Source: a virus. From it: 39,691 nt of DNA. Under the pieces are notes generated by a model. The model was not told the origin of the DNA. It worked only from the letters and a program-made list of their open reading frames with translations, and ran no database searches. The position numbers and the translations under genes are program-made. Of this stretch, positions 2,848 to 20,273 are shown one piece after another; position 1 is the stretch's first letter, and every line of letters starts with the position of its first letter. The stretch lies in the UHGV virus genome UHGV-1269212, one strand, 5' to 3'.

Positions 2848-5800
2848 GTGGCGAATAAGAAAATAAAAGGAATCACAATTAAATTCGGTGCGGATACAAT
2901 GGCGCTCAGCAAAGCTTTGAAATCCGCGGAAGATACATCAAAAAGTCTTGGTAGCGAATTAAGCTCTGTAAATAAATTATTAAAATTTGACCCGAAGAAT
3001 ACGCAGTTGCTTGCACAGAAACAGGAGTTATTAAGTAAACAGGTCGAAAATACCAAGGAAAAGCTGGAAGCCTTAAAGCAGGCACAGGGAGAAGTAGAAA
3101 AGAAGTTCAAATCTGGTGACATCGGAGCGGAAGAATACCGAGAATTTCAGAGGGAAATTGCGAAGACGGAACAGGATTTAAAATCTTACACCACGCAGAT
3201 TAGTCGAATGGAGACTGAGCAGAAATCCCTAAAAGAAAGCACGAAGCAGTTGCAGACGCTGTTTGAAGCAACCGGAAAGTCCCTAGATGATTTTCAGGAC
3301 GTGCTCGGCACAAGGCTGACAAATGCTATAAAAAATGGAACTGCAAACAGTGACGATCTGACAGTAGCGCTTAACAAGATAGGAAAAGAAGCGTTTGGGG
3401 CAGAAACTGACCTGTCAAAGATGAAAGCTACATTGAATAAGGTAGATGACGGGGCGAGTATTGATGAAGTGAACAACGACCTGAACGAGATGAAGAAGAA
3501 TTCAGGTGAGGCAGGAGAAGCACTGGACGGTATCGGAAAAGGAATTGTTGCAGGAAACATGATGCAAGCCGCTGAAATCATAGCAGATGCAGGGCAGAAG
3601 ATAAAAGAGTTTAGTGACAACGCAAAAGAAGCATTTAATGAGGTAGATGCCGGATCTGATGCAATCATAACAGCGACAGGTGCTACAGGGAAGCTTGCTG
3701 AAGGAATGGATAATGTCTATAAAAGCATTGCGTCCAGCCTTCCGATAGACAACCTTGAAAACATCGGAAAAGTAATTGGGGAGATGAATACGCAGTTCGG
3801 GTTCACCGATGAAAAATTACAACATGCATCTGAAAAAATGTTGAAGTTTTCGGAAATTACTGGATCCGATGTGGTAGCATCAACGCAAAATGCAAAACAG
3901 GCGATTAGCGTATTCCACATGTCGAGTGATGATCTAGACAGCGTACTTGATGATGTTGCAAAAACAGCGCAAGACACGGGCGTATCTGTAGACGATCTAT
4001 TTCAGAAAGCGATTGAAGGAGCGCCACAGCTACAAGAATTGGGATTGAGTTTCTCGGACTCAGTAAAGCTGTTGGGGGCATTTGAGCAGGCAGGAGTAGA
4101 CGGGTCTGCCGCATTAAGCAGCTTATCAAAGGCAGCGGTAAATTATGCAAAAGACGGGAAATCACTCACTGACGGTTTGGCAGAAACGCAGGATAAAATT
4201 TTGAATGCGACTGACCAGACGGAAGCATTAAACGCCGCCGCCGAGGTATTCGGAACAAAAGGTGCTGTGAGGATGGTAGATGCCATCCAAAGAGGGGTTC
4301 TAAACCTGAACGACCTAGGAGGCGCTGCCTCAGACAGTCAGGGGACTGTGGAAACGACTTTCAGCAATACTTTAGACCCGATTGACGAAGAAACGGTTGC
4401 GCTAAATAACGTAAAGTTGGCTATGGCTGAGTTCGGGAGTGCCATTTCAGAAGCAGTAGCCCCAATTCTGGAAGCACTTGTTCCTATCATTCAGAAAGTT
4501 GCAAAGTGGTTTAGCAGTCTTTCTGGAACAAGCAAGACTATTATAGTCGTAATCGGTGGGATTGCAATGGTGATTTCGGCTTTACTACCGATTCTTGCGG
4601 TTGTAGCTGGTGGAATAGCAGCGGCTGGAGGTGCAATGGCATTTTTGACAGGAGTGCTATTACCAGTAGCCGGAATTATTGCCGGAATTATTGCAGTGGT
4701 TGCAGCAGTTGTGGCAGTAATAAAAAACTGGGGAGATATCACAGATTGGCTGTCCGAAAAATGGAATGCATTTAAAGATTGGATGTCTGACCTGTGGGAC
4801 GGTATCAGCGAGAGTGCGTCTGAAGCATGGGATGGAATCAAAGAATATTTTTCCAATTTATGGGATTCAATTTCACAAAAGGCGTCGGAAGTATGGGAAA
4901 ATATCACAGGGACTTTAAAGGATACATGGGATGGAATTAAAGAATATTTTTCCAATTTATGGGATTCAATTTCAAAAACAGCGTCTGAAACATGGGAAAG
5001 CATTGTAGGAACGTTAAAAGAAGTATGGGATGGAATTGTTGGTTTCTTTCGGGATACATGGGAAACGATATGCGACGTTATGGAGGGTCCGCTGAAATTT
5101 ATCGAGGGAACAATAGGTGCGATAATGTACGCAATTTATGCTGTGATATATACGGTTTGGGAAGTTATAAAATTTGCATTAAAAAGCGCATGGGATTGGA
5201 TAAGCGATACGGCAAGTGCAATTTTTACATCGATAAGCGAATTCTTTTCGGAAACGTGGGAGAAAATTTCCAAGGCAACATCAGAAGCGTGGGAAACAGT
5301 AAAACAAACAATAAGTGATGTGTGGAACTGGATAAAAGACACTGCAAATGCAATTTTCTCTCCTGTTGCCGAATTTTTCGTAAATCTGTGGAATGGAGTT
5401 AAAAATACAGTAATAGTTGTGTGGAGCACAATAAAGCAAGCGCTTAGTGACACATGGAACTGGATTAAAGATACAGCAACTTCGATCTTCGTTCCTGTAG
5501 CAGAATTTTTTACAAATACATGGAATGGAATCAAGGATACTGCAACCGGAATCTGGAACAGCATTAAGGGCACGCTCGGTGGAATATGGGATTCGATCAA
5601 AGAGAAAGCTATGGACGCTTTTTCTTCTGTTTGGAAGTTTATTAAAGACGGATTTAACAATCTTAAGGATACTCTTGGAGGAATCGTGAAAGGGATTGCG
5701 AACGCAATTGTGAAACCAATAGGTGGAGCAGTAAATGGCGTAATTAATGGTGTAAACTGGGTGCTTGATAAAGTAGGATCGGACAAGCAATTTGCATTGT

Positions 5801-14694: not shown

Positions 14695-15500
14695 TGAAAA
14701 TCGGTTTAAGAGGAGGCCACTCTCCGAATTGCAAGGGTGCGATCGGTCTGATTGATGAGCAGGCAGAAGTGCGGAAGATTTACAATGAGCTTGTACCAAT
14801 GCTGCAGGCTGTCGGTCATACTGTGGTTGACTGCAATTCCAACGCATCCAATGTGTCTGGCGAGCTGACTGACGGCACAAATAAGGCGAATGGAGCAGGA
14901 TGCGATATTTATGTCACCTTGCACATGAACGCCGCAGGAGCGACATCAGCAGGGGGCACAGAGGTGTGGTTATATGATGCATCTAACCAGACCATGAACA
15001 CGATCGCAAGCAACATCTGTAATAATTTTGCAGGAAAAGGATTTACTAACCGTGGTGTAAAGTACAGTTCGGGATACCATGATCTGAATGTATCTAATAT
15101 GCCTGGCATGATCGTGGAGACATTATTCTGCACTGGCACAGGTGATGTGGCCAGATATCGAAATTTAGGTACAAAAGGAATTGCTGAGCTGATTGCAAAG
15201 GCAATCGACAGTAGAGCGTCTGCATGCAGCGAACAAAAAAATAACCAGAATACAGGAATCGAACAGGAAGGAGAAGAAGAGATGAAATGTTTATTTACAG
15301 TAGAGGGAAAAGGTGCAGTGTATTATTTTGACGGTCAAAAAGTAATAACATTGGGTCATCCAGACGAATTAAAAATCATCCAGCAGATTTACAAGGACAA
15401 CAATGGTAAGGACATGCCGTGTTACAAGTGGAGTCCTAAAGCGCCATGGTATGCAAGGCTCATGTCGGTAATTTACAGTAAAGAGACCACATCTATTTAA
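14694..15500 (+). CDS. Endolysin: N-acetylmuramoyl-L-alanine amidase (Amidase_3-like) with a C-terminal cell-wall-binding region
   Basis: N-terminus MKIGLRGGHSPNCKGAIG..E...N...........DIYVTLHMNA... is typical of MurNAc-LAA. Confidence 0.75.
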   Translation: MKIGLRGGHSPNCKGAIGLIDEQAEVRKIYNELVPMLQAVGHTVVDCNSNASNVSGELTDGTNKANGAGCDIYVTLHMNAAGATSAGGTEVWLYDASNQTMNTIASNICNNFAGKGFTNRGVKYSSGYHDLNVSNMPGMIVETLFCTGTGDVARYRNLGTKGIAELIAKAIDSRASACSEQKNNQNTGIEQEGEEEMKCLFTVEGKGAVYYFDGQKVITLGHPDELKIIQQIYKDNNGKDMPCYKWSPKAPWYARLMSVIYSKETTSI

Positions 15501-15507
15501 TAAAAAT

Positions 15508-15534
15508 CCCCTCGGAGATCAGCTCTCTGAGGGG
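15508..15534 (-). terminator. Strong hairpin CCCCTCGGAGA..TCTCTGAGGGG; the minus strand follows it with ATTTTTATT
   Basis: Stem of about 11 bp. The U-run is on the minus-strand side, so it likely stops leftward (int) transcription; on the + strand it may also help stop lysis readthrough. Confidence 0.45.
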
Positions 15535-15572
15535 TGAATATTGTATCAATCTTATTGAATAAAAACATTCTA

Positions 15573-15791
15573 TTTACAACACACTTACAACAAAAATGCC
15601 AACAAAGCCCGTAAAACCGTCAATAATATTTAAGCAATCTTAAGATTTATTGATTTTCAAAGATTCCCGTGGTTGACGCAAAAACTTCAAAAAACGTGTC
15701 AACCACGGGCTTTTTGTCGAATAAAATGCAATCAAAAAAGAATTGATTTCAGGTAGAATAATCGAACCGTTTACAACACACTTACAACAAA
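15573..15791. repeat. attP-like region: 22-bp perfect direct repeat TTTACAACACACTTACAACAAA at 15573-15594 and 15770-15791
   Basis: Identical 22-mers 197 bp apart flank the terminator. The second copy overlaps the integrase stop codon (TTA at 15782-15784). Confidence 0.45.
15666..15715 (+). terminator. Intrinsic terminator with a 12-bp perfect stem (CCCGTGGTTGAC / GTCAACCACGGG) and a TTTTT tail
   Basis: Seen directly; terminates the rightward late/lysis operon inside the att region. Confidence 0.7.
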
Positions 15792-16936
15792 TTGATTTCT
15801 ATTTTTTCAATCTCATTTCTTAAGTCTTCCAATGTCCGGTGACCATATGTGTCATTTGTAATATCACCTATCTTATGTCCAAGCATTCTTTTTCGATCAT
15901 TCTCCGCGACTTTATATTTTTCGCACAATTTTGAAAATGTGTGCCGGCAATCATGTGGAGTATGCTTTTCAATTCCAAGTGCGGACAGTTGCGCATACAT
16001 CTTATCCCGGAATATATCGATTCTATCAGGCAGGATATAACCCTGTACTTTTATCCTGTGCTTTACAAGATTTAAAATCCCGGAATAAATCGGAACGGTT
16101 CTGTTTTTCCCAGCATCCGTTTTGATACCACCCAAAAAATAACGTTCTTTCAAATGGACTTCTAAAGTCTTATATTCAGAGATTCGAAAGCCGGAGTAGC
16201 ACATGATCAGAATCATCTCGGACACTTCATTTTCTTTTGTTTCCCACAATTTCTTCAAATCTTCATCAGTAAATGGAATGCCATGCTCGTCATCGTCATC
16301 CTGTGTGATTTCGACATAAGACGAATAATCTTTTGTACATAAATTGTTTGCCATAGCATACTTGTACATGTGATAGTATAGATTTTGGATGTGTTCTATG
16401 CTGGCGTGTCTGAGTGGACAAGCGTCCATTACTTCCTGTAGATCGTCTGTAACAAGCTCTGCGAAAATTCTGTTGTGTAGGGCAGCAGAGTTCTTGAATC
16501 CTGCGCGTAGCGTATATTCTAAGCTGGTACGTTTTACTTTTTTCGCATCGTATTCATGCCCAAACTTTTTAACATTGAATTTCCGGTATACTTCCGCAAA
16601 TGTTAATTGTGGCTCTTCCTTTGATTTAATTCCTTGCACCTGATTATAATTTGCAAGCAGAGACTGGATAAAATCCTCCGCATTCTTTTTGTCATCCACC
16701 TGGATATCATTTTCCATGCCGGGAGTATAGGTGCCGGCTTTGTATGCTGTCAGTACTGCGAAGCCGATCATCCAGTCAGAAACATAGCATATTGCTTTCT
16801 GTGGCTTCATTTGCCCGTTTTCGTATTCTTCTTTAGCTGGCGGGTAAACGCCGTAAGGATTGCGGCGCCCTTTGCCGAGAAAGCGTATCTGACCGTAACC
16901 ATTGGGCAAACGAGGATGCTTTTTTCTTTTGGCCAT
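15782..16936 (-). CDS. int: Tyrosine recombinase / phage integrase
   Basis: AAAGGAGATGATTAT-ATG RBS at 16936; 384 aa; C-terminal HDCRHTF...LGHK...YGH catalytic motifs (R, HxxR, Y). Confidence 0.85.
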   Translation of the reverse strand: MAKRKKHPRLPNGYGQIRFLGKGRRNPYGVYPPAKEEYENGQMKPQKAICYVSDWMIGFAVLTAYKAGTYTPGMENDIQVDDKKNAEDFIQSLLANYNQVQGIKSKEEPQLTFAEVYRKFNVKKFGHEYDAKKVKRTSLEYTLRAGFKNSAALHNRIFAELVTDDLQEVMDACPLRHASIEHIQNLYYHMYKYAMANNLCTKDYSSYVEITQDDDDEHGIPFTDEDLKKLWETKENEVSEMILIMCYSGFRISEYKTLEVHLKERYFLGGIKTDAGKNRTVPIYSGILNLVKHRIKVQGYILPDRIDIFRDKMYAQLSALGIEKHTPHDCRHTFSKLCEKYKVAENDRKRMLGHKIGDITNDTYGHRTLEDLRNEIEKIEINLL

Positions 16937-17097
16937 ATAATCATCTCCTTTAAATTTAGGTATAAAAATAACAGCCAGCGCAAAACAAACGTTCCGCTTG
17001 CATGACTGCTCCGAAGATGATACAATATTCTTGGATTTCAATCGCATATCTTCGGATGTGTAGACCGTCTCTGTTGGCGCAGGGGCGGTTTTTTTAT

Positions 17098-17430
17098 TTA
17101 GTCTATAGGGACAGCGTATCCTTCTTTGATAGCGCTACTCTTTTTGCATGCTGAACATTTCACCGCTGTCTTATTCTTCGAAACTTCACACGTTTTTCCG
17201 CAATAAGGGCATGTCACCTTCACACCTCCGACAATCTTTTGAATGCCCGCCATAATAAAGCTCATTCCGAAAATCAATAATCCAACTCCTGGTAGGATAA
17301 AGATAAAGAAACCTATAATTGAAAATGGGAATATGAATATTCCTCCAAGTATTATTAGAAATAGTCCTAAAATCCAATTTGGTTTAACAGTTTCAAGTTT
17401 CGTTTTTTCTGGATTCACTCTACAATCCAT
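17098..17430 (-). CDS. Membrane protein with two TM helices and a C-terminal zinc ribbon (CPYCG...CSAC); lysogeny-side moron
   Basis: 110 aa; own promoter/leader module shared with the next gene. Confidence 0.5.
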   Translation of the reverse strand: MDCRVNPEKTKLETVKPNWILGLFLIILGGIFIFPFSIIGFFIFILPGVGLLIFGMSFIMAGIQKIVGGVKVTCPYCGKTCEVSKNKTAVKCSACKKSSAIKEGYAVPID

Positions 17431-17513
17431 ATAAATTACCTCTCTTTCCCGTCACTTCAACACGACTTTTACTATATATAAACGCCGTCCTTGTATTGGA
17501 ACATAGGCTGTTT

Positions 17514-18071
17514 TTATTGTACTGCTAATTCAAATTTCGCTTTATGCTCATTATAGTCGTCATCGTAAACTGAAACGATTACTGAGATTTTATCGCTTAC
17601 GTTATTTAAGCCATACGCATCCTGTGCGCCTGCACATTTCGCTCCTTGTGGAGTGGATTGTGGAAGATTGGTTACTCCAGCAGGATATGTGTCAGCCACC
17701 TCTCCGTTTGCATCTATTACTTTAAAGTTGTCAATATACAAATCATCATCTAGTCCTATATTTTCATAATCATAATTGAGAACCACTACTTGAGCTGGAG
17801 ACTTTTCAGAAAACTGGTTTCTCTCATCAGTTGGCGTCGCAGCAGTAAAGGTGAGTGAGAACAATCCATCAACATTCCAAGTTTCACCGTTTGTATAAAC
17901 TTTATCCTCTGCCAGCTTCTCGGGTTCTATTTTCCCATCATCGACTTCTTCTTTGACAGTTTCTTCCTTTGGAGCTTCTTCTTTCTTTACTTCCTTACTT
18001 TCTCCTCCACAAGCTATAACTGATAACGACATGGTTACCGCCAATAATAATACTACAATTTTCTTTTTCAT
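17514..18071 (-). CDS. Lipoprotein (signal peptide with LSVIAC lipobox; DUF4352-like Ig-fold domain); lysogeny-side moron
   Basis: MKKKIVVLLLAVTMSLSVIACGG start; acidic linker; the VVVLNYDYENIG region resembles DUF4352. Confidence 0.55.
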   Translation of the reverse strand: MKKKIVVLLLAVTMSLSVIACGGESKEVKKEEAPKEETVKEEVDDGKIEPEKLAEDKVYTNGETWNVDGLFSLTFTAATPTDERNQFSEKSPAQVVVLNYDYENIGLDDDLYIDNFKVIDANGEVADTYPAGVTNLPQSTPQGAKCAGAQDAYGLNNVSDKISVIVSVYDDDYNEHKAKFELAVQ

Positions 18072-18134
18072 TTCTTTTTCCTCTCTTTCTTGTGCACTTT
18101 AACACCACTTTGCTCTATATAAACGCCGAAGCGG

Positions 18135-18620
18135 TTATATCATTTCCATAACTGCTAAATTAGGAATAAAATAAATAACATAATTATCTACAGTAGTACA
18201 TTCACCATATTTTCCAGTATAGCAGTCAATAGCTTCCTGCAGATATTCTTCTGTGACATGTAGATGTTCTGCAACTTCATATCGATTCTGGCATCCAGCA
18301 TTAAAAGCGGATATGATACCACGCAACCCGATCATTCGGTTATATCCGCGTAATCGACCTTTTTGTTCTTGCTTTAGATTTTCAATATTCATTTGGTCAA
18401 TGATATTTCCAACAGCAGTGAAATGATGTCCCATTTCTTCTGCGAGTACACACGCTTTTTCTGTTGATGTTCTTAACCTATCAGATATTGCAATTCTATT
18501 TCTGAATATTCGTCCATCACTCCCGGACAGAGGCTTCTCACGGACTACGAGTCCGCTATTTTTCGCCTCTTCTAAAAGTTCCTCATAAATTGTCATCGTA
18601 TCACTCCCATTCAGAGTCAT
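18135..18620 (-). CDS. immA: ImmA/IrrE-family zinc metallopeptidase (anti-repressor protease)
   Basis: HEXXH motif AEEMGHHF; 20-nt overlap with the upstream XRE repressor gene, as in ImmR/ImmA pairs. Confidence 0.7.
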   Translation of the reverse strand: MTLNGSDTMTIYEELLEEAKNSGLVVREKPLSGSDGRIFRNRIAISDRLRTSTEKACVLAEEMGHHFTAVGNIIDQMNIENLKQEQKGRLRGYNRMIGLRGIISAFNAGCQNRYEVAEHLHVTEEYLQEAIDCYTGKYGECTTVDNYVIYFIPNLAVMEMI

Positions 18621-19092
18621 CCATCATGATGTCATCATCATGTTTTCTCATTTCATTGGTTACTTTAATATCGGTACGTTCGTGAGCCGCCATTACTGAT
18701 AGATCATCATCCATTTGTTGTATAGATAGCAATTGTTCAATGTAATTATCGGCTTTTCTTCTATTCATCTCAATCAACTGCAAATACTTTTTAAAATGAG
18801 TCTTTTCTCTCGAAGATAATGCGCCAATGTTATTAATTATATTTTCGAGATTATCATTTGTAAATACGTTTTCAATGTATTTATCGGTAGCTGAATCTAA
18901 ATCCATGAGATAGGTAGGTGAGCAATCAAAAATTTCTGACATTTTCGCAATAGTAGAACGTTTTATATTCTTAACTCGCCCATTCTCATATTTTGCTATC
19001 GCAGATTTTTGAAGCCCCAACTTTTGTGCAAGTTCTTCTTGGGTGAGCCCAACTTCTTTTCTTTTGCTCTTTATTCTATCTGACATTGCCAT
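18601..19092 (-). CDS. immR: XRE-family HTH repressor (CI/ImmR-like)
   Basis: N-terminal HTH (GLTQEELAQKLGLQKSAIAKYENG); divergent from the cro-like gene; AAAGGAG RBS. Confidence 0.8.
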   Translation of the reverse strand: MAMSDRIKSKRKEVGLTQEELAQKLGLQKSAIAKYENGRVKNIKRSTIAKMSEIFDCSPTYLMDLDSATDKYIENVFTNDNLENIINNIGALSSREKTHFKKYLQLIEMNRRKADNYIEQLLSIQQMDDDLSVMAAHERTDIKVTNEMRKHDDDIMMDDSEWE

Positions 19093-19112
19093 GTTTCTGT
19101 TCTCCTTTCGAT

Positions 19113-19239
19113 GTGTCTTAATTTTACTACATTAAATACGAGATTGCAAGCTTTTTGTGAAAAAGTGTCTTAAAAATATAAAAAAGTTGTTGACAATAAA
19201 GACACCCAGTGCTATTCTGTAAGTGTCTTAAACAGACAC
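19113..19239. promoter_or_regulatory. Immunity switch region. Leftward PRM: TTGCAA 19144-19149, TAAAAT as ATTTTA 19121-19126. Rightward PR: TTGACA 19190-19195, TATTCT 19213-19218. Operator dyad GTGTCTTAAACAGACAC 19223-19239. Half-sites GTGTCT at 19113 and 19165, AGACAC at 19200
   Basis: Hexamers with 17-nt spacers read directly; the GTGTCT-N5-AGACAC dyad overlaps the PR +1 region. Confidence 0.55.
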
Positions 19240-19265
19240 AAATAAATTAAAGGAGGTTTGGTAGG

Positions 19266-19472
19266 ATGAATAAAAACATGCTAGAGTCGGTCATGAAGCT
19301 AAATGGTGACACGGGAACTTCCCTTGCTTCTTATTTAGGGATTGCACGAGGTACGTTTTCCGCAAAAATCAACGAAACAAACGGTGCGGAATTTACTCAA
19401 GGAGAAATTTCTAGAATTAAGCAGAAGTATTCTTTGTGTGGGGAAGATATTGAAAAAATTTTTTTTGATTAA
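19266..19472 (+). CDS. Cro-like small HTH regulator
   Basis: 68 aa; AGGAGG RBS; first gene of the rightward early operon; HTH-like GTSLASYLGIARGTF segment. Confidence 0.45.
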   Translation: MNKNMLESVMKLNGDTGTSLASYLGIARGTFSAKINETNGAEFTQGEISRIKQKYSLCGEDIEKIFFD

Positions 19473-19475
19473 AAA

Positions 19476-19492
19476 GTGTCTAAAAAAGACAC
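19476..19492. promoter_or_regulatory. Second operator GTGTCTAAAAAAGACAC (same dyad and spacing as 19223-19239) immediately upstream of the Rha antirepressor RBS
   Basis: Perfect 6-5-6 dyad 14 nt upstream of ATG 19506. Confidence 0.55.
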
Positions 19493-19505
19493 AGAAAGAG
19501 GAAGT

Positions 19506-20273
19506 ATGAACAATTTAACAGTATTCGAACAAAATGGGCAGCTACTCACCGACAGTAGAGAAGTAGCAATGATGGTAGAGCTTGAGCATTACAATCTTAT
19601 CAAAAAGATAAAGTCTTATGCAAAGCATCTTACTGACGTAAATTTTGACGTGAGTGAATATTTCATCGAATCAGAGTACAAAGACAGCACAGGAAGAACG
19701 CTTCCATGTTACCTCTGTACAAAGAAAGGATGCGACATGATCGCCAACAAAATGACCGGAAAGAAAGGTGTCATTTTTACAGCTACATATATTGAAGCAT
19801 TCGAGAAGATGAAAGATTTCATCGAAAAGGGAACACAGTACGTTGGCATTCCATTAAAAGAACAGGTGGAATCACTGGAAGTGGTAGCAAGCATGTTAAG
19901 AATGAACGATGCAAGCAAATTGCTGATGCTGAAAGGGTTCTATGATTCTTACCATATTCCGACAGGATTCTTACCGAATTATGAGTTTAACGGCAATAGG
20001 GAAATGAAGTCGCTCACAGCACTGCTGAAAGAAAATAATCTCGGAATCAGTGCGGTGCAGTTCAATAAGAAACTTTTATCTGCCGGAATCTTAGAAGAAA
20101 AGGAACGCCAGTCAAGTAAGGGAAGAGTGAAGAAGTTCAAATCACTGACAGAGAAAGGTTTGAAATACGGCGAAAATGCAGTCAGTCCTCATAATCAGAA
20201 AGAGGTGCAGCCGTTGTATTACAGTGACACGTTCAATGAACTGTTTGAGGTTGCGACAGATTCGTTGGCGTAA
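19506..20273 (+). CDS. Phage regulatory protein Rha-family antirepressor
   Basis: AGAGGAAGT RBS; N-terminus NNLTVFEQNGQLLTDSREVAMMVELEHYNLIKKIK matches the Rha (pRha) N-domain; 255 aa. Confidence 0.55.
   Translation: MNNLTVFEQNGQLLTDSREVAMMVELEHYNLIKKIKSYAKHLTDVNFDVSEYFIESEYKDSTGRTLPCYLCTKKGCDMIANKMTGKKGVIFTATYIEAFEKMKDFIEKGTQYVGIPLKEQVESLEVVASMLRMNDASKLLMLKGFYDSYHIPTGFLPNYEFNGNREMKSLTALLKENNLGISAVQFNKKLLSAGILEEKERQSSKGRVKKFKSLTEKGLKYGENAVSPHNQKEVQPLYYSDTFNELFEVATDSLA

Follow-up and report, generated by a model that had tools for sequence, protein, structure and literature searches.

Why two small genes of a temperate phage lie between its integrase and its immunity genes, each behind a nearly identical leader, is the question raised by the virus genome UHGV-1269212. 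The whole stretch of 39,691 nt (the window) was analyzed; it is a 39.7-kb temperate siphophage of Ruminococcus (Mediterraneibacter) gnavus. The first-pass annotation, made from the letters alone, had proposed two lysogeny-side moron genes with a duplicated promoter and leader module, the pair being no described system. The two open reading frames (ORFs) are real and each has a strong Shine-Dalgarno (SD) sequence, GAAAGAGAGG; the proximal one encodes a lipoprotein and the distal one a zinc-ribbon membrane protein called ZnR here (Table 1). The duplicated promoter and the novel two-gene system are largely explained by ordinary cassette stacking, and the more interesting result reaches beyond these genes, namely a slot for defence cargo bounded by two elements, P and T, across Lachnospiraceae prophages. 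Our whole reading is that the pair arose as stacked cassettes, forms a single operon and has an exclusion function at the envelope, to which we give a probability of about 0.55.

The claim of a conserved leader before each gene stood in part. The repeat (17436-17487 against 18077-18128, about 52 nt) has about 80% identity with one indel, and its local alignment score of 33 was reached by 0 of 5000 shuffles (shuffle maximum 20), but the second copy holds only the right half of the element concerned. That element is P (GATATAACCGCTNCGGCGTTTATATA), a 26-bp imperfect palindrome whose right arm is the 13-mer CGGCGTTTATATA of the leader repeat. In the 39.7 kb, this 13-mer and the 10-mer GAAAGAGAGG have exact matches only at the two leader copies. 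The window was compared with six R. gnavus phages isolated on strain ATCC 29149 (phiRg507T2_2, phiRM10, phiRg519T2, phiRgIBDN1, phiRgPS_6 and phiRg507T2_3) and described by Buttimer et al. 2023 (PMC10072058). All six have an exact copy of the 13-mer 50-64 nt upstream of whichever gene occupies the slot. At their first-slot copies the conservation runs leftwards beyond the 13-mer and gives the full P, and the genes behind it are of the Ltp-type superinfection exclusion, DUF4429-SHOCT, DUF5067 lipoprotein and DUF4236 kinds. The proposed duplicated module does have its head twice in the window, but it is not private to the pair, as at least 21 unrelated families of cargo genes have P as their head.

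The consensus of P is GATATAACCGC-TNCG-GCGTTTATATA, with a stem of 9 pairs plus one C.T mismatch and the loop variants TTCG, TACG, TCCG and TGCG. When IMG/VR was scanned with three core pairs left free, the core was almost invariant in 107 viral-contig stretches. The P 23-mer is present in representative genomes of 29 species, from genera including Dorea, Mediterraneibacter, Blautia, Roseburia, Anaerostipes, Lachnoclostridium and Bariatricus as well as mouse Lachnospiraceae. All fetched loci together gave 182 instances in 92 different upstream contexts, with a co-oriented ORF with a strong SD downstream (gap median 41 nt, range 24-65). Complete P elements are stacked in L016, L060 and L108, and P together with T adjoins both tyrosine integrases, as in the window, and serine recombinases (L016, L108). 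The cargo was thus shown to consist of cassettes, in each of which P as the head is followed by a leader of 24-65 nt with a strong SD, and the window has two of them in tandem. No description of P, T or the cargo hot spot was found in the literature searched.

The other border is formed by T (AAAACCGCCCC...G(A/G)GACGG), which follows the last cargo gene in most of the fetched loci (111 BLAST hits). The terminator scan placed its hairpin at 17062-17091 on the plus strand with 13 pairs; T is a canonical intrinsic terminator (stem plus U7, with G.U pairs) only on that strand, antisense to the cargo, and its upper stem covaries (CTG/CAG, CAGTG/CACTG, GGTA/TACC). Since T terminates only the antisense strand, it shields the slot against transcription that enters from the integrase. 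Against relatives with other cargo, the homology of the window has its breakpoints at 17093-17108 (T) and 18143-18151 (left end of P), and the six relatives, with flanks 93-98% identical, hold four other cargo sets in the slot. As expected for morons, the genes are present or absent between close relatives at a fixed position; a sense-strand terminator of the moron kind was not found, T terminating the opposite strand only. The region between repressor/ImmA and integrase is thereby shown to be a cargo slot common to temperate Lachnospiraceae phages.

The 125 cargo ORFs behind P fell into 21 unrelated clusters. Anti-phage families among them are AbiD (3e-35), PD-Lambda-1 (9e-124, the DUF4041-T5orf172 cargo), PDC-S19 (7e-148, the DUF3644-EC042_2821 cargo, a candidate anti-phage family) and Lipoprotein_Ltp (1e-50). 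Nuclease and toxin cargo comprises an HSDR_N nuclease-like protein, PBECR3, PemK/MazF and a membrane HNH protein, and Abi_2 was found as well; other domains are BRCT, HIRAN, bPH, SHOCT, TM2 and DUF4236, and there are many lipoproteins and small zinc-ribbon membrane proteins. Known anti-phage systems thus occur among the occupants of the slot, and the composition of the cargo is that of a prophage defence/exclusion hot spot. The idea of lysogeny-side cargo of the exclusion or defence type gains support from this hypervariable slot, from the same head before recognised anti-phage families and from homologues at the same position.

Three candidates were considered for what P does, an extended -10 promoter, an RNA hairpin or an operator. 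We prefer to read P as an extended -10 promoter, G-n-TATAAC, which would have its +1 at the G of GGCG. This predicted +1 is within 1 nt of the point where the second window copy starts. The conserved block begins at the putative -14 G, and TG at -15/-14 is present in about 60% of the contexts. A divergent ORF starts at most 250 nt upstream of P in 39 of the 132 non-redundant instances, and those cargo genes therefore need a promoter in the short intergenic region that contains P. Within the window, the extended -10-like G-n-TATAAC occurs in copy 1 only, and neither copy has a sigma-70-like site. P as an operator of the phage repressor was rejected, as it accompanies at least three unrelated immunity modules.

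The rival that survives best, possible but in our judgement doubtful, takes P not as a promoter but as a hairpin in the cargo-strand RNA whose lower stem is AU-rich and whose tetraloop is C(UNCG)G. Its role would be that of a 5' or intercistronic stabiliser, a processing site or a leaky terminator, the cargo would be transcribed from an upstream promoter (in the window, that of repressor-ImmA), and the armless copy would be a functionless relic. In its favor, all four loop variants have the UNCG form with the flanking C and G fixed, several left-arm variants still pair via G.U, and the stem survives in a T-deletion variant, where the C.U mismatch becomes a bulge. P also lies 0-6 nt past, or over, a co-directional ORF stop in 68 of 132 instances, a conserved AATAnT box about 7 nt upstream in divergent contexts would put the +1 at the first base of P, and the combination of hairpin and GTTTATATA recurs among fusions of T to the right arm. 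Against it, the P hairpin is weak (-7.2 kcal/mol, z -1.7), has 3 G-C pairs only and fails the terminator scan; true compensatory changes are absent (a tally of about 9 compatible against 5 disruptive), and the variants CGCCATGGCG and TATG violate the UNCG rule. In three viral-contig scans the covariation in P was limited to single-sided variants, which do not decide between RNA and DNA. Neither leader folds better than its shuffles, and a permissive Rfam search of 15500-19600 gave chance matches only, with no relevant match even at E<=10.

Other features were seen around P. A third leader type, seen just downstream of P in L017, L022, L073, L075, L100, L123 and others, has its own conserved hairpin (AAGGGTTGGTTACCCT) between P and the SD. 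A recurrent G(T/C)GG motif, complementary to the CCGC of P, is located 8-15 nt past the right arm in leader types a and b. L207 (about 2990-3165, opposite strand) and the equivalent L007 region contain a small ORF of 57 aa for an XRE-type helix-turn-helix (HTH) protein, divergent from P, which has its own terminator and is not among the called genes of L207. The inverted repeat TTGTAGT-N17-ACTACAG lies between this ORF and P, and this is the commonest upstream context of P.

The first cargo product has the marks of a bacterial lipoprotein, a signal peptide that ends in a lipobox (MKKKIVVLLLAVTMSLSVIAC, pattern [LVI][ASTVI][GAS]C) kept in homologues, with its cysteine aligned in 13 of 15 of them. 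It matches phrog_806 over its full length (E 2e-21) and is labelled 'beta-sandwich domain-containing protein' in GenBank. Residues 57-185 form an all-beta domain (predicted local distance difference test, pLDDT, >90), of which the top Foldseek match in the Protein Data Bank (PDB) is 3CFU (YjhA; E 1e-3, TM-score TMt 0.60); the fold also matches MPT63 and phage proteins of BFVD named DUF4352 or DUF5067. The proposed lipoprotein with a DUF4352-like Ig domain therefore holds for the lipobox and for the fold, but not for membership at the sequence level, since the DUF4352 profile (PF11611) did not match and no Pfam family did so even at E<=1. No match to PF07553, and so no Ltp repeat, was found in the lipoprotein, while the cargo of a relative gives 1e-50. 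Homologues occupy the same position between repressor (or ImmA) and integrase in Enterococcus phiEf11 (ORF32) and Listeria A500 (gp32).

The signal peptide and linker of the lipoprotein have 53% identity over 43 aa to the DUF5067 lipoprotein of phiRgPS_6 (L004 4600-5199), and the two mature domains have no sequence relationship, a pattern suggestive of modular exchange within the lipoprotein cargo. In P0007, a metagenomic homologue, the same beta-sandwich is anchored by an N-terminal zinc ribbon and a transmembrane (TM) helix, with no lipid. The Ltp-type superinfection exclusion protein of phiRgIBDN1 (L003 2603-3199) has the same kind of zinc-ribbon-TM anchor.

The second product is, as had been proposed, a two-TM protein with a C-terminal zinc ribbon. 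The AlphaFold2 (AF2) model (pLDDT 80) has helices at 19-43 and 45-67, followed by a beta zinc ribbon with strands in 69-108 and two CxxC knuckles, and C74, C77, C92 and C95 are invariant in 40 homologues. Pfam zinc-ribbon models match ZnR only below cutoff. Most homologues have a second, N-terminal zinc ribbon, which the ZnR of the window does not have. ZnR belongs to phrog_10121 (function unknown) and is labelled 'zinc finger domain-containing protein' in the GenBank records of phiRg507T2_2 and phiRM10. The fold search of BFVD gave uncharacterised phage proteins only, and the PADLOC defence matches of ZnR were all sub-threshold.

Because of the position, the strand, the envelope location and the company in the slot, superinfection exclusion or defence expressed by the prophage is the most likely function of the pair. 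Both products would act at the cell envelope of the lysogen against superinfecting phages. The Ig-like DUF4352-type domain of the lipoprotein would sit on the outer face of the membrane and block adsorption or DNA delivery in the manner of Ltp or Llp, and ZnR, with both ends predicted in the cytoplasm, would act independently at the membrane like T4 Imm or HK97 gp15. A published phenotype is circumstantial evidence for such a role. On the lysogen of strain JCM 6515T carrying phiRg507T2/2 (T2/2), phiRg507T2/3 (T2/3) did not plate and phiRg519T2 (519T2) did (PMC10072058, Table 2), and T2/2 carries the same lipoprotein-ZnR pair. The repressors of T2/3, 519T2, IBDN1 and RM10 are identical and their immunity regions 98.6-100% identical (98.6% between T2/3 and 519T2). 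Since the T2/2 repressor is unrelated to that of T2/3 and 519T2, T2/2 and T2/3 are heteroimmune by sequence, and the exclusion is heteroimmune, phage-specific and beyond what repressor immunity explains. The DUF4352 domain is also required for Mpr-mediated phage resistance in mycobacteria (PMC12596739), in an architecture unlike that of the window lipoprotein. The text of PMC10072058 reports reciprocal cross-resistance of the T2/2 and T2/3 lysogens, and its table gives one direction only.

It is rather unlikely that the cargo serves lysogenic conversion of the gut bacterium instead, as a surface Ig-like adhesin, a factor of host interaction or a stress protein. The lipoprotein fold does resemble secreted and surface Ig-like proteins such as MPT63, and the slot holds families with no known defence role (DUF4236, bPH, TM2, SHOCT); however, recognised and candidate anti-phage families are enriched in the slot, and the T2/2 lysogen shows a heteroimmune exclusion phenotype.

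The second leader copy bears on how the two cassettes came together. It starts exactly at CGGCG, the left arm of P (GATATAAC) is absent, and it is identical in the window, L001 and L005. When the 30 nt from the lipoprotein stop to the right arm are aligned with T, 22-23 of the 30 agree, a score that 9/2000 and 69/2000 shuffles reached, and at the junction GGACGG is directly followed by CGTTTATATA. An intact arrangement of T, 30 nt and P is found in L206, and a distant metagenome-assembled genome (L262) has an independent fusion of T to the right arm. By comparison with L206, the junction is what would be left if the terminal ACGG of T had been joined to the central ACGG of P with loss of the DNA between them. 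Copy 2 was probably truncated in this way: a microhomology deletion from the terminal ACGG of an internal T to that of P would have removed the end of the internal T, which is the insulator, together with the -10-like left arm of P, and would have joined the two cassettes.

Since the left arm is absent from copy 2, an independent promoter there is unlikely. The first-pass annotation had assigned each gene its own, similar promoter outside repressor control, both inside the duplicated part. The form of this that we considered, with a -35 TTTATA in the right arm and TGT-TAAAGT in copy 1 or TGT-TGAAGT in copy 2, or with TATAGT as an alternative -10 in copy 2, appears improbable. Copy 1 does read TTTATA-16-TAAAGT with TG in front, TATAGT in copy 2 is a 5/6 match, and copy 2 is conserved as described. 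Yet the promoter scan was empty at both copies (sigma-70, minus strand, 17431-17520 and 18072-18160), TGAAGT in copy 2 lacks the -11 A and TATAGT lacks a -35. Other leader types behind P are entirely without these motifs, hence they are not the conserved function, and the transcription start sites would land inside the SD or immediately ahead of it. The left arm missing from copy 2 is moreover the only promoter-like part of the conserved element, and copy 1 overlaps the ImmA stop, so that co-transcription with the repressor operon is as likely as independence.

The two genes would form one transcription unit in the lysogen, transcribed from the intact P, by read-through from repressor-ImmA, or both. 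A single transcript is the most economical model because no sense-strand terminator lies between the genes; the terminator scan found none on the minus strand either between or after them. The tandem of lipoprotein and ZnR cassettes is present in the window, phiRg507T2_2, phiRM10 and one metagenomic contig. ZnR is the sole cargo behind a complete P in L207 (95% identical), stands behind an Ltp-type gene in L206 and has no P in L204 and L205, and it is always the last gene before T. As ZnR occurs elsewhere without the window lipoprotein, the pair is, judging from its distribution, a lineage-specific stack and not an obligate system, and the view of it as a system is not supported. That the two are one two-component system, for example with ZnR as membrane partner or signal transducer, is very improbable: four related genomes have the genes side by side and probably co-transcribed, and P0007 fuses the same beta domain to a zinc ribbon and TM helix, but ZnR does without the lipoprotein in the loci just named, each gene still bears the marks of a cassette of its own, and the ribbon of P0007 is N-terminal and of a different type.

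Several points weigh against the stacked-cassette and exclusion reading. P fails the standard sigma-70 scan, its TATAAC has no -7 T, and no conserved -35 was found across the 92 upstream contexts. P abuts or contains a co-directional stop codon in 68 of 132 instances, a placement that would suit a terminator or an intercistronic RNA element just as well. The deletion scenario is based on a 30-nt alignment of modest significance. Neither the lipoprotein nor ZnR convincingly matches any PADLOC model, and the exclusion by the T2/2 lysogen could stem from any other gene of the prophage.

Known systems share some of these features. Lambdoid morons were reportedly described by Juhala and Hendrix in 2000. 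Defence hot spots are known from P2/P4 prophages (Rousset et al. 2022, PMC9122126). Like the slot of the window, both have accessory genes present or absent between near-identical phages at a fixed position, anti-phage enrichment and presumed expression from the prophage. Unlike them, the slot is bounded, beyond the conserved genes, by the short non-coding P (26 bp) and T; P accompanies integrases of both the tyrosine and the serine kind as well as differing immunity modules; and T faces antisense transcription and does not end the cargo transcript. Superinfection exclusion (Sie) genes of dairy phages form a second comparison. Sie2009 of the lactococcal P335 phages lies between integrase and repressor. 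Ltp of Streptococcus thermophilus phage TP-J34 has the same location (PMC3952083). These genes resemble the pair in position, strand and in encoding a lipoprotein or a small membrane protein, and in relatives of the window phage the slot itself holds an Ltp-family gene (PF07553, 1e-50), again headed by P; unlike Ltp, the window lipoprotein has an all-beta Ig-like domain and no Ltp repeats, and ZnR has no known Sie homologue.

The DUF4352/DUF5067 proteins (YjhA 3CFU, Mycobacterium smegmatis Mpr) are like the lipoprotein in fold (TM-score about 0.6) and in being anchored to the membrane, and the domain occurs in temperate phages and is tied to phage resistance in Mpr (PMC12596739). The lipoprotein differs in having no sequence-level membership, no nuclease N-domain and a lipid instead of a TM anchor. 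Integrons also hold an array of single-gene cassettes beside an integrase gene, each bounded by an imperfect palindrome. In contrast, P lies 5' of the ORF and is nearly invariant, the cassettes carry their own SD and leader, and the exchange looks like homologous or microhomology recombination and not like attC x attI. An integron-like array was rejected, since P and T stand beside both tyrosine and serine recombinases and the cassette borders are thus not tied to a single dedicated integrase type.

A wider reading, which we hold tentatively and at less than even odds, is that temperate phages of various Lachnospiraceae genera share a defence/exclusion slot with P and T as its portable non-coding borders, with P as a self-contained, regulated expression head and recombination handle and with the lipoprotein and ZnR as two new exclusion factors. 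P may then be a promoter with a palindromic operator, or possibly an RNA stability element. If this is true, cassettes would be exchanged by recombination at the identical 26 bp of P, gut metagenomes could be searched for P as a direct route to new anti-phage genes, and the two products would account for the exclusion of phiRg507T2/3 by phiRg507T2/2 lysogens. The P/T-flanked slot provides a searchable marker for prophage-borne defence cargo in Lachnospiraceae, and both genes are specific candidates behind a published, unexplained exclusion phenotype. R. gnavus is a gut species associated with inflammatory bowel disease, and its phages are considered as tools; papers on these phages (PMC10072058 among them) ascribe cross-resistance to the repressors and leave the slot unmentioned.

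Table 1. Features of the cargo slot and its flanks in the window (positions of the whole stretch).
Feature	Position	Strand	Remarks
Tyrosine integrase	15782..16939	-	PF00589 E 2e-7, phrog_1 E 4e-26; right-hand conserved flank of the slot
T element, conserved hairpin	17055..17097	+	Directly past the last cargo stop codon; closes the slot on the integrase side
ZnR, 110 aa, two-helix membrane hairpin and cytoplasmic C-terminal CPYC...CSAC zinc ribbon	17098..17430	-	Second (distal) cassette
Leader copy 2: right arm of P only (CGGCGTTTATATA, 17475-17487), type-a leader, SD	17431..17487	-	
Decayed T-like remnant	17488..17516	-	Starts at the lipoprotein stop (17514-17516); joined to the P right arm at ACGG
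Lipoprotein, 185 aa, lipobox VIAC, Cys21, acidic/lysine-rich linker, Ig-like beta-sandwich	17514..18071	-	First (proximal) cassette
Leader copy 1, P to start codon (type-a leader and SD GAAAGAGAGG)	18072..18115	-	
P element, complete 26-bp imperfect palindrome GATATAACCGCTTCGGCGTTTATATA	18116..18141	-	ImmA stop TAA (18135-18137) inside the left arm
Immunity operon	18135..19092	-	ImmA/IrrE metalloprotease 18135-18620 (Peptidase_M78), XRE repressor 18601-19092

The neighbourhood of the slot has the order endolysin (plus strand), then integrase, ZnR, lipoprotein, ImmA/IrrE and XRE repressor, all on the minus strand, with Cro-like and Rha genes on the plus strand beyond the repressor. Across 15500-19600 the window is 93-98% identical, in pieces, to the six isolated phages, and phiRg507T2_2 and phiRM10 have about 97% identity to it across the cargo region; its integrase is 94-98% identical in the six. 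The immunity operon directly abuts P in the same direction and has a promoter-like site at 19149-19121.

The immunity module at 18144-19505 (XRE repressor, ImmA and switch region) is absent from all six isolated relatives, which use two repressor types other than that of the window. Around the divergent promoters (19105-19235) there are three copies of GTGTCTTAA, probably an operator. L001, L003, L005 and L006 have a perfect Cheo/LexA box (GAACATTTGTTC) about 50-60 nt upstream of P, and L204 and L207 have one as well; in the relatives it falls in the non-coding DNA that separates the repressor gene from P. LexA control of the cargo was rejected for the window, which has no Cheo box and has ImmA instead.

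On the integrase side, the inverted repeat CCGAAGAT...ATCTTCGG (17011-17018 and 17048-17055, loop about 29 nt) lies between T and the integrase start; it is kept in most related loci and may regulate int. A 22-bp direct repeat (TTTACAACACACTTACAACAAA) at 15573-15594 and 15770-15791 probably represents attP arm sites, with a terminator-like hairpin at 15669-15712 between the two copies, in the interval from the endolysin to the 3' end of int. Near these repeats, AATCTTAAGATTT resembles the published attP core of phiRgPS6.

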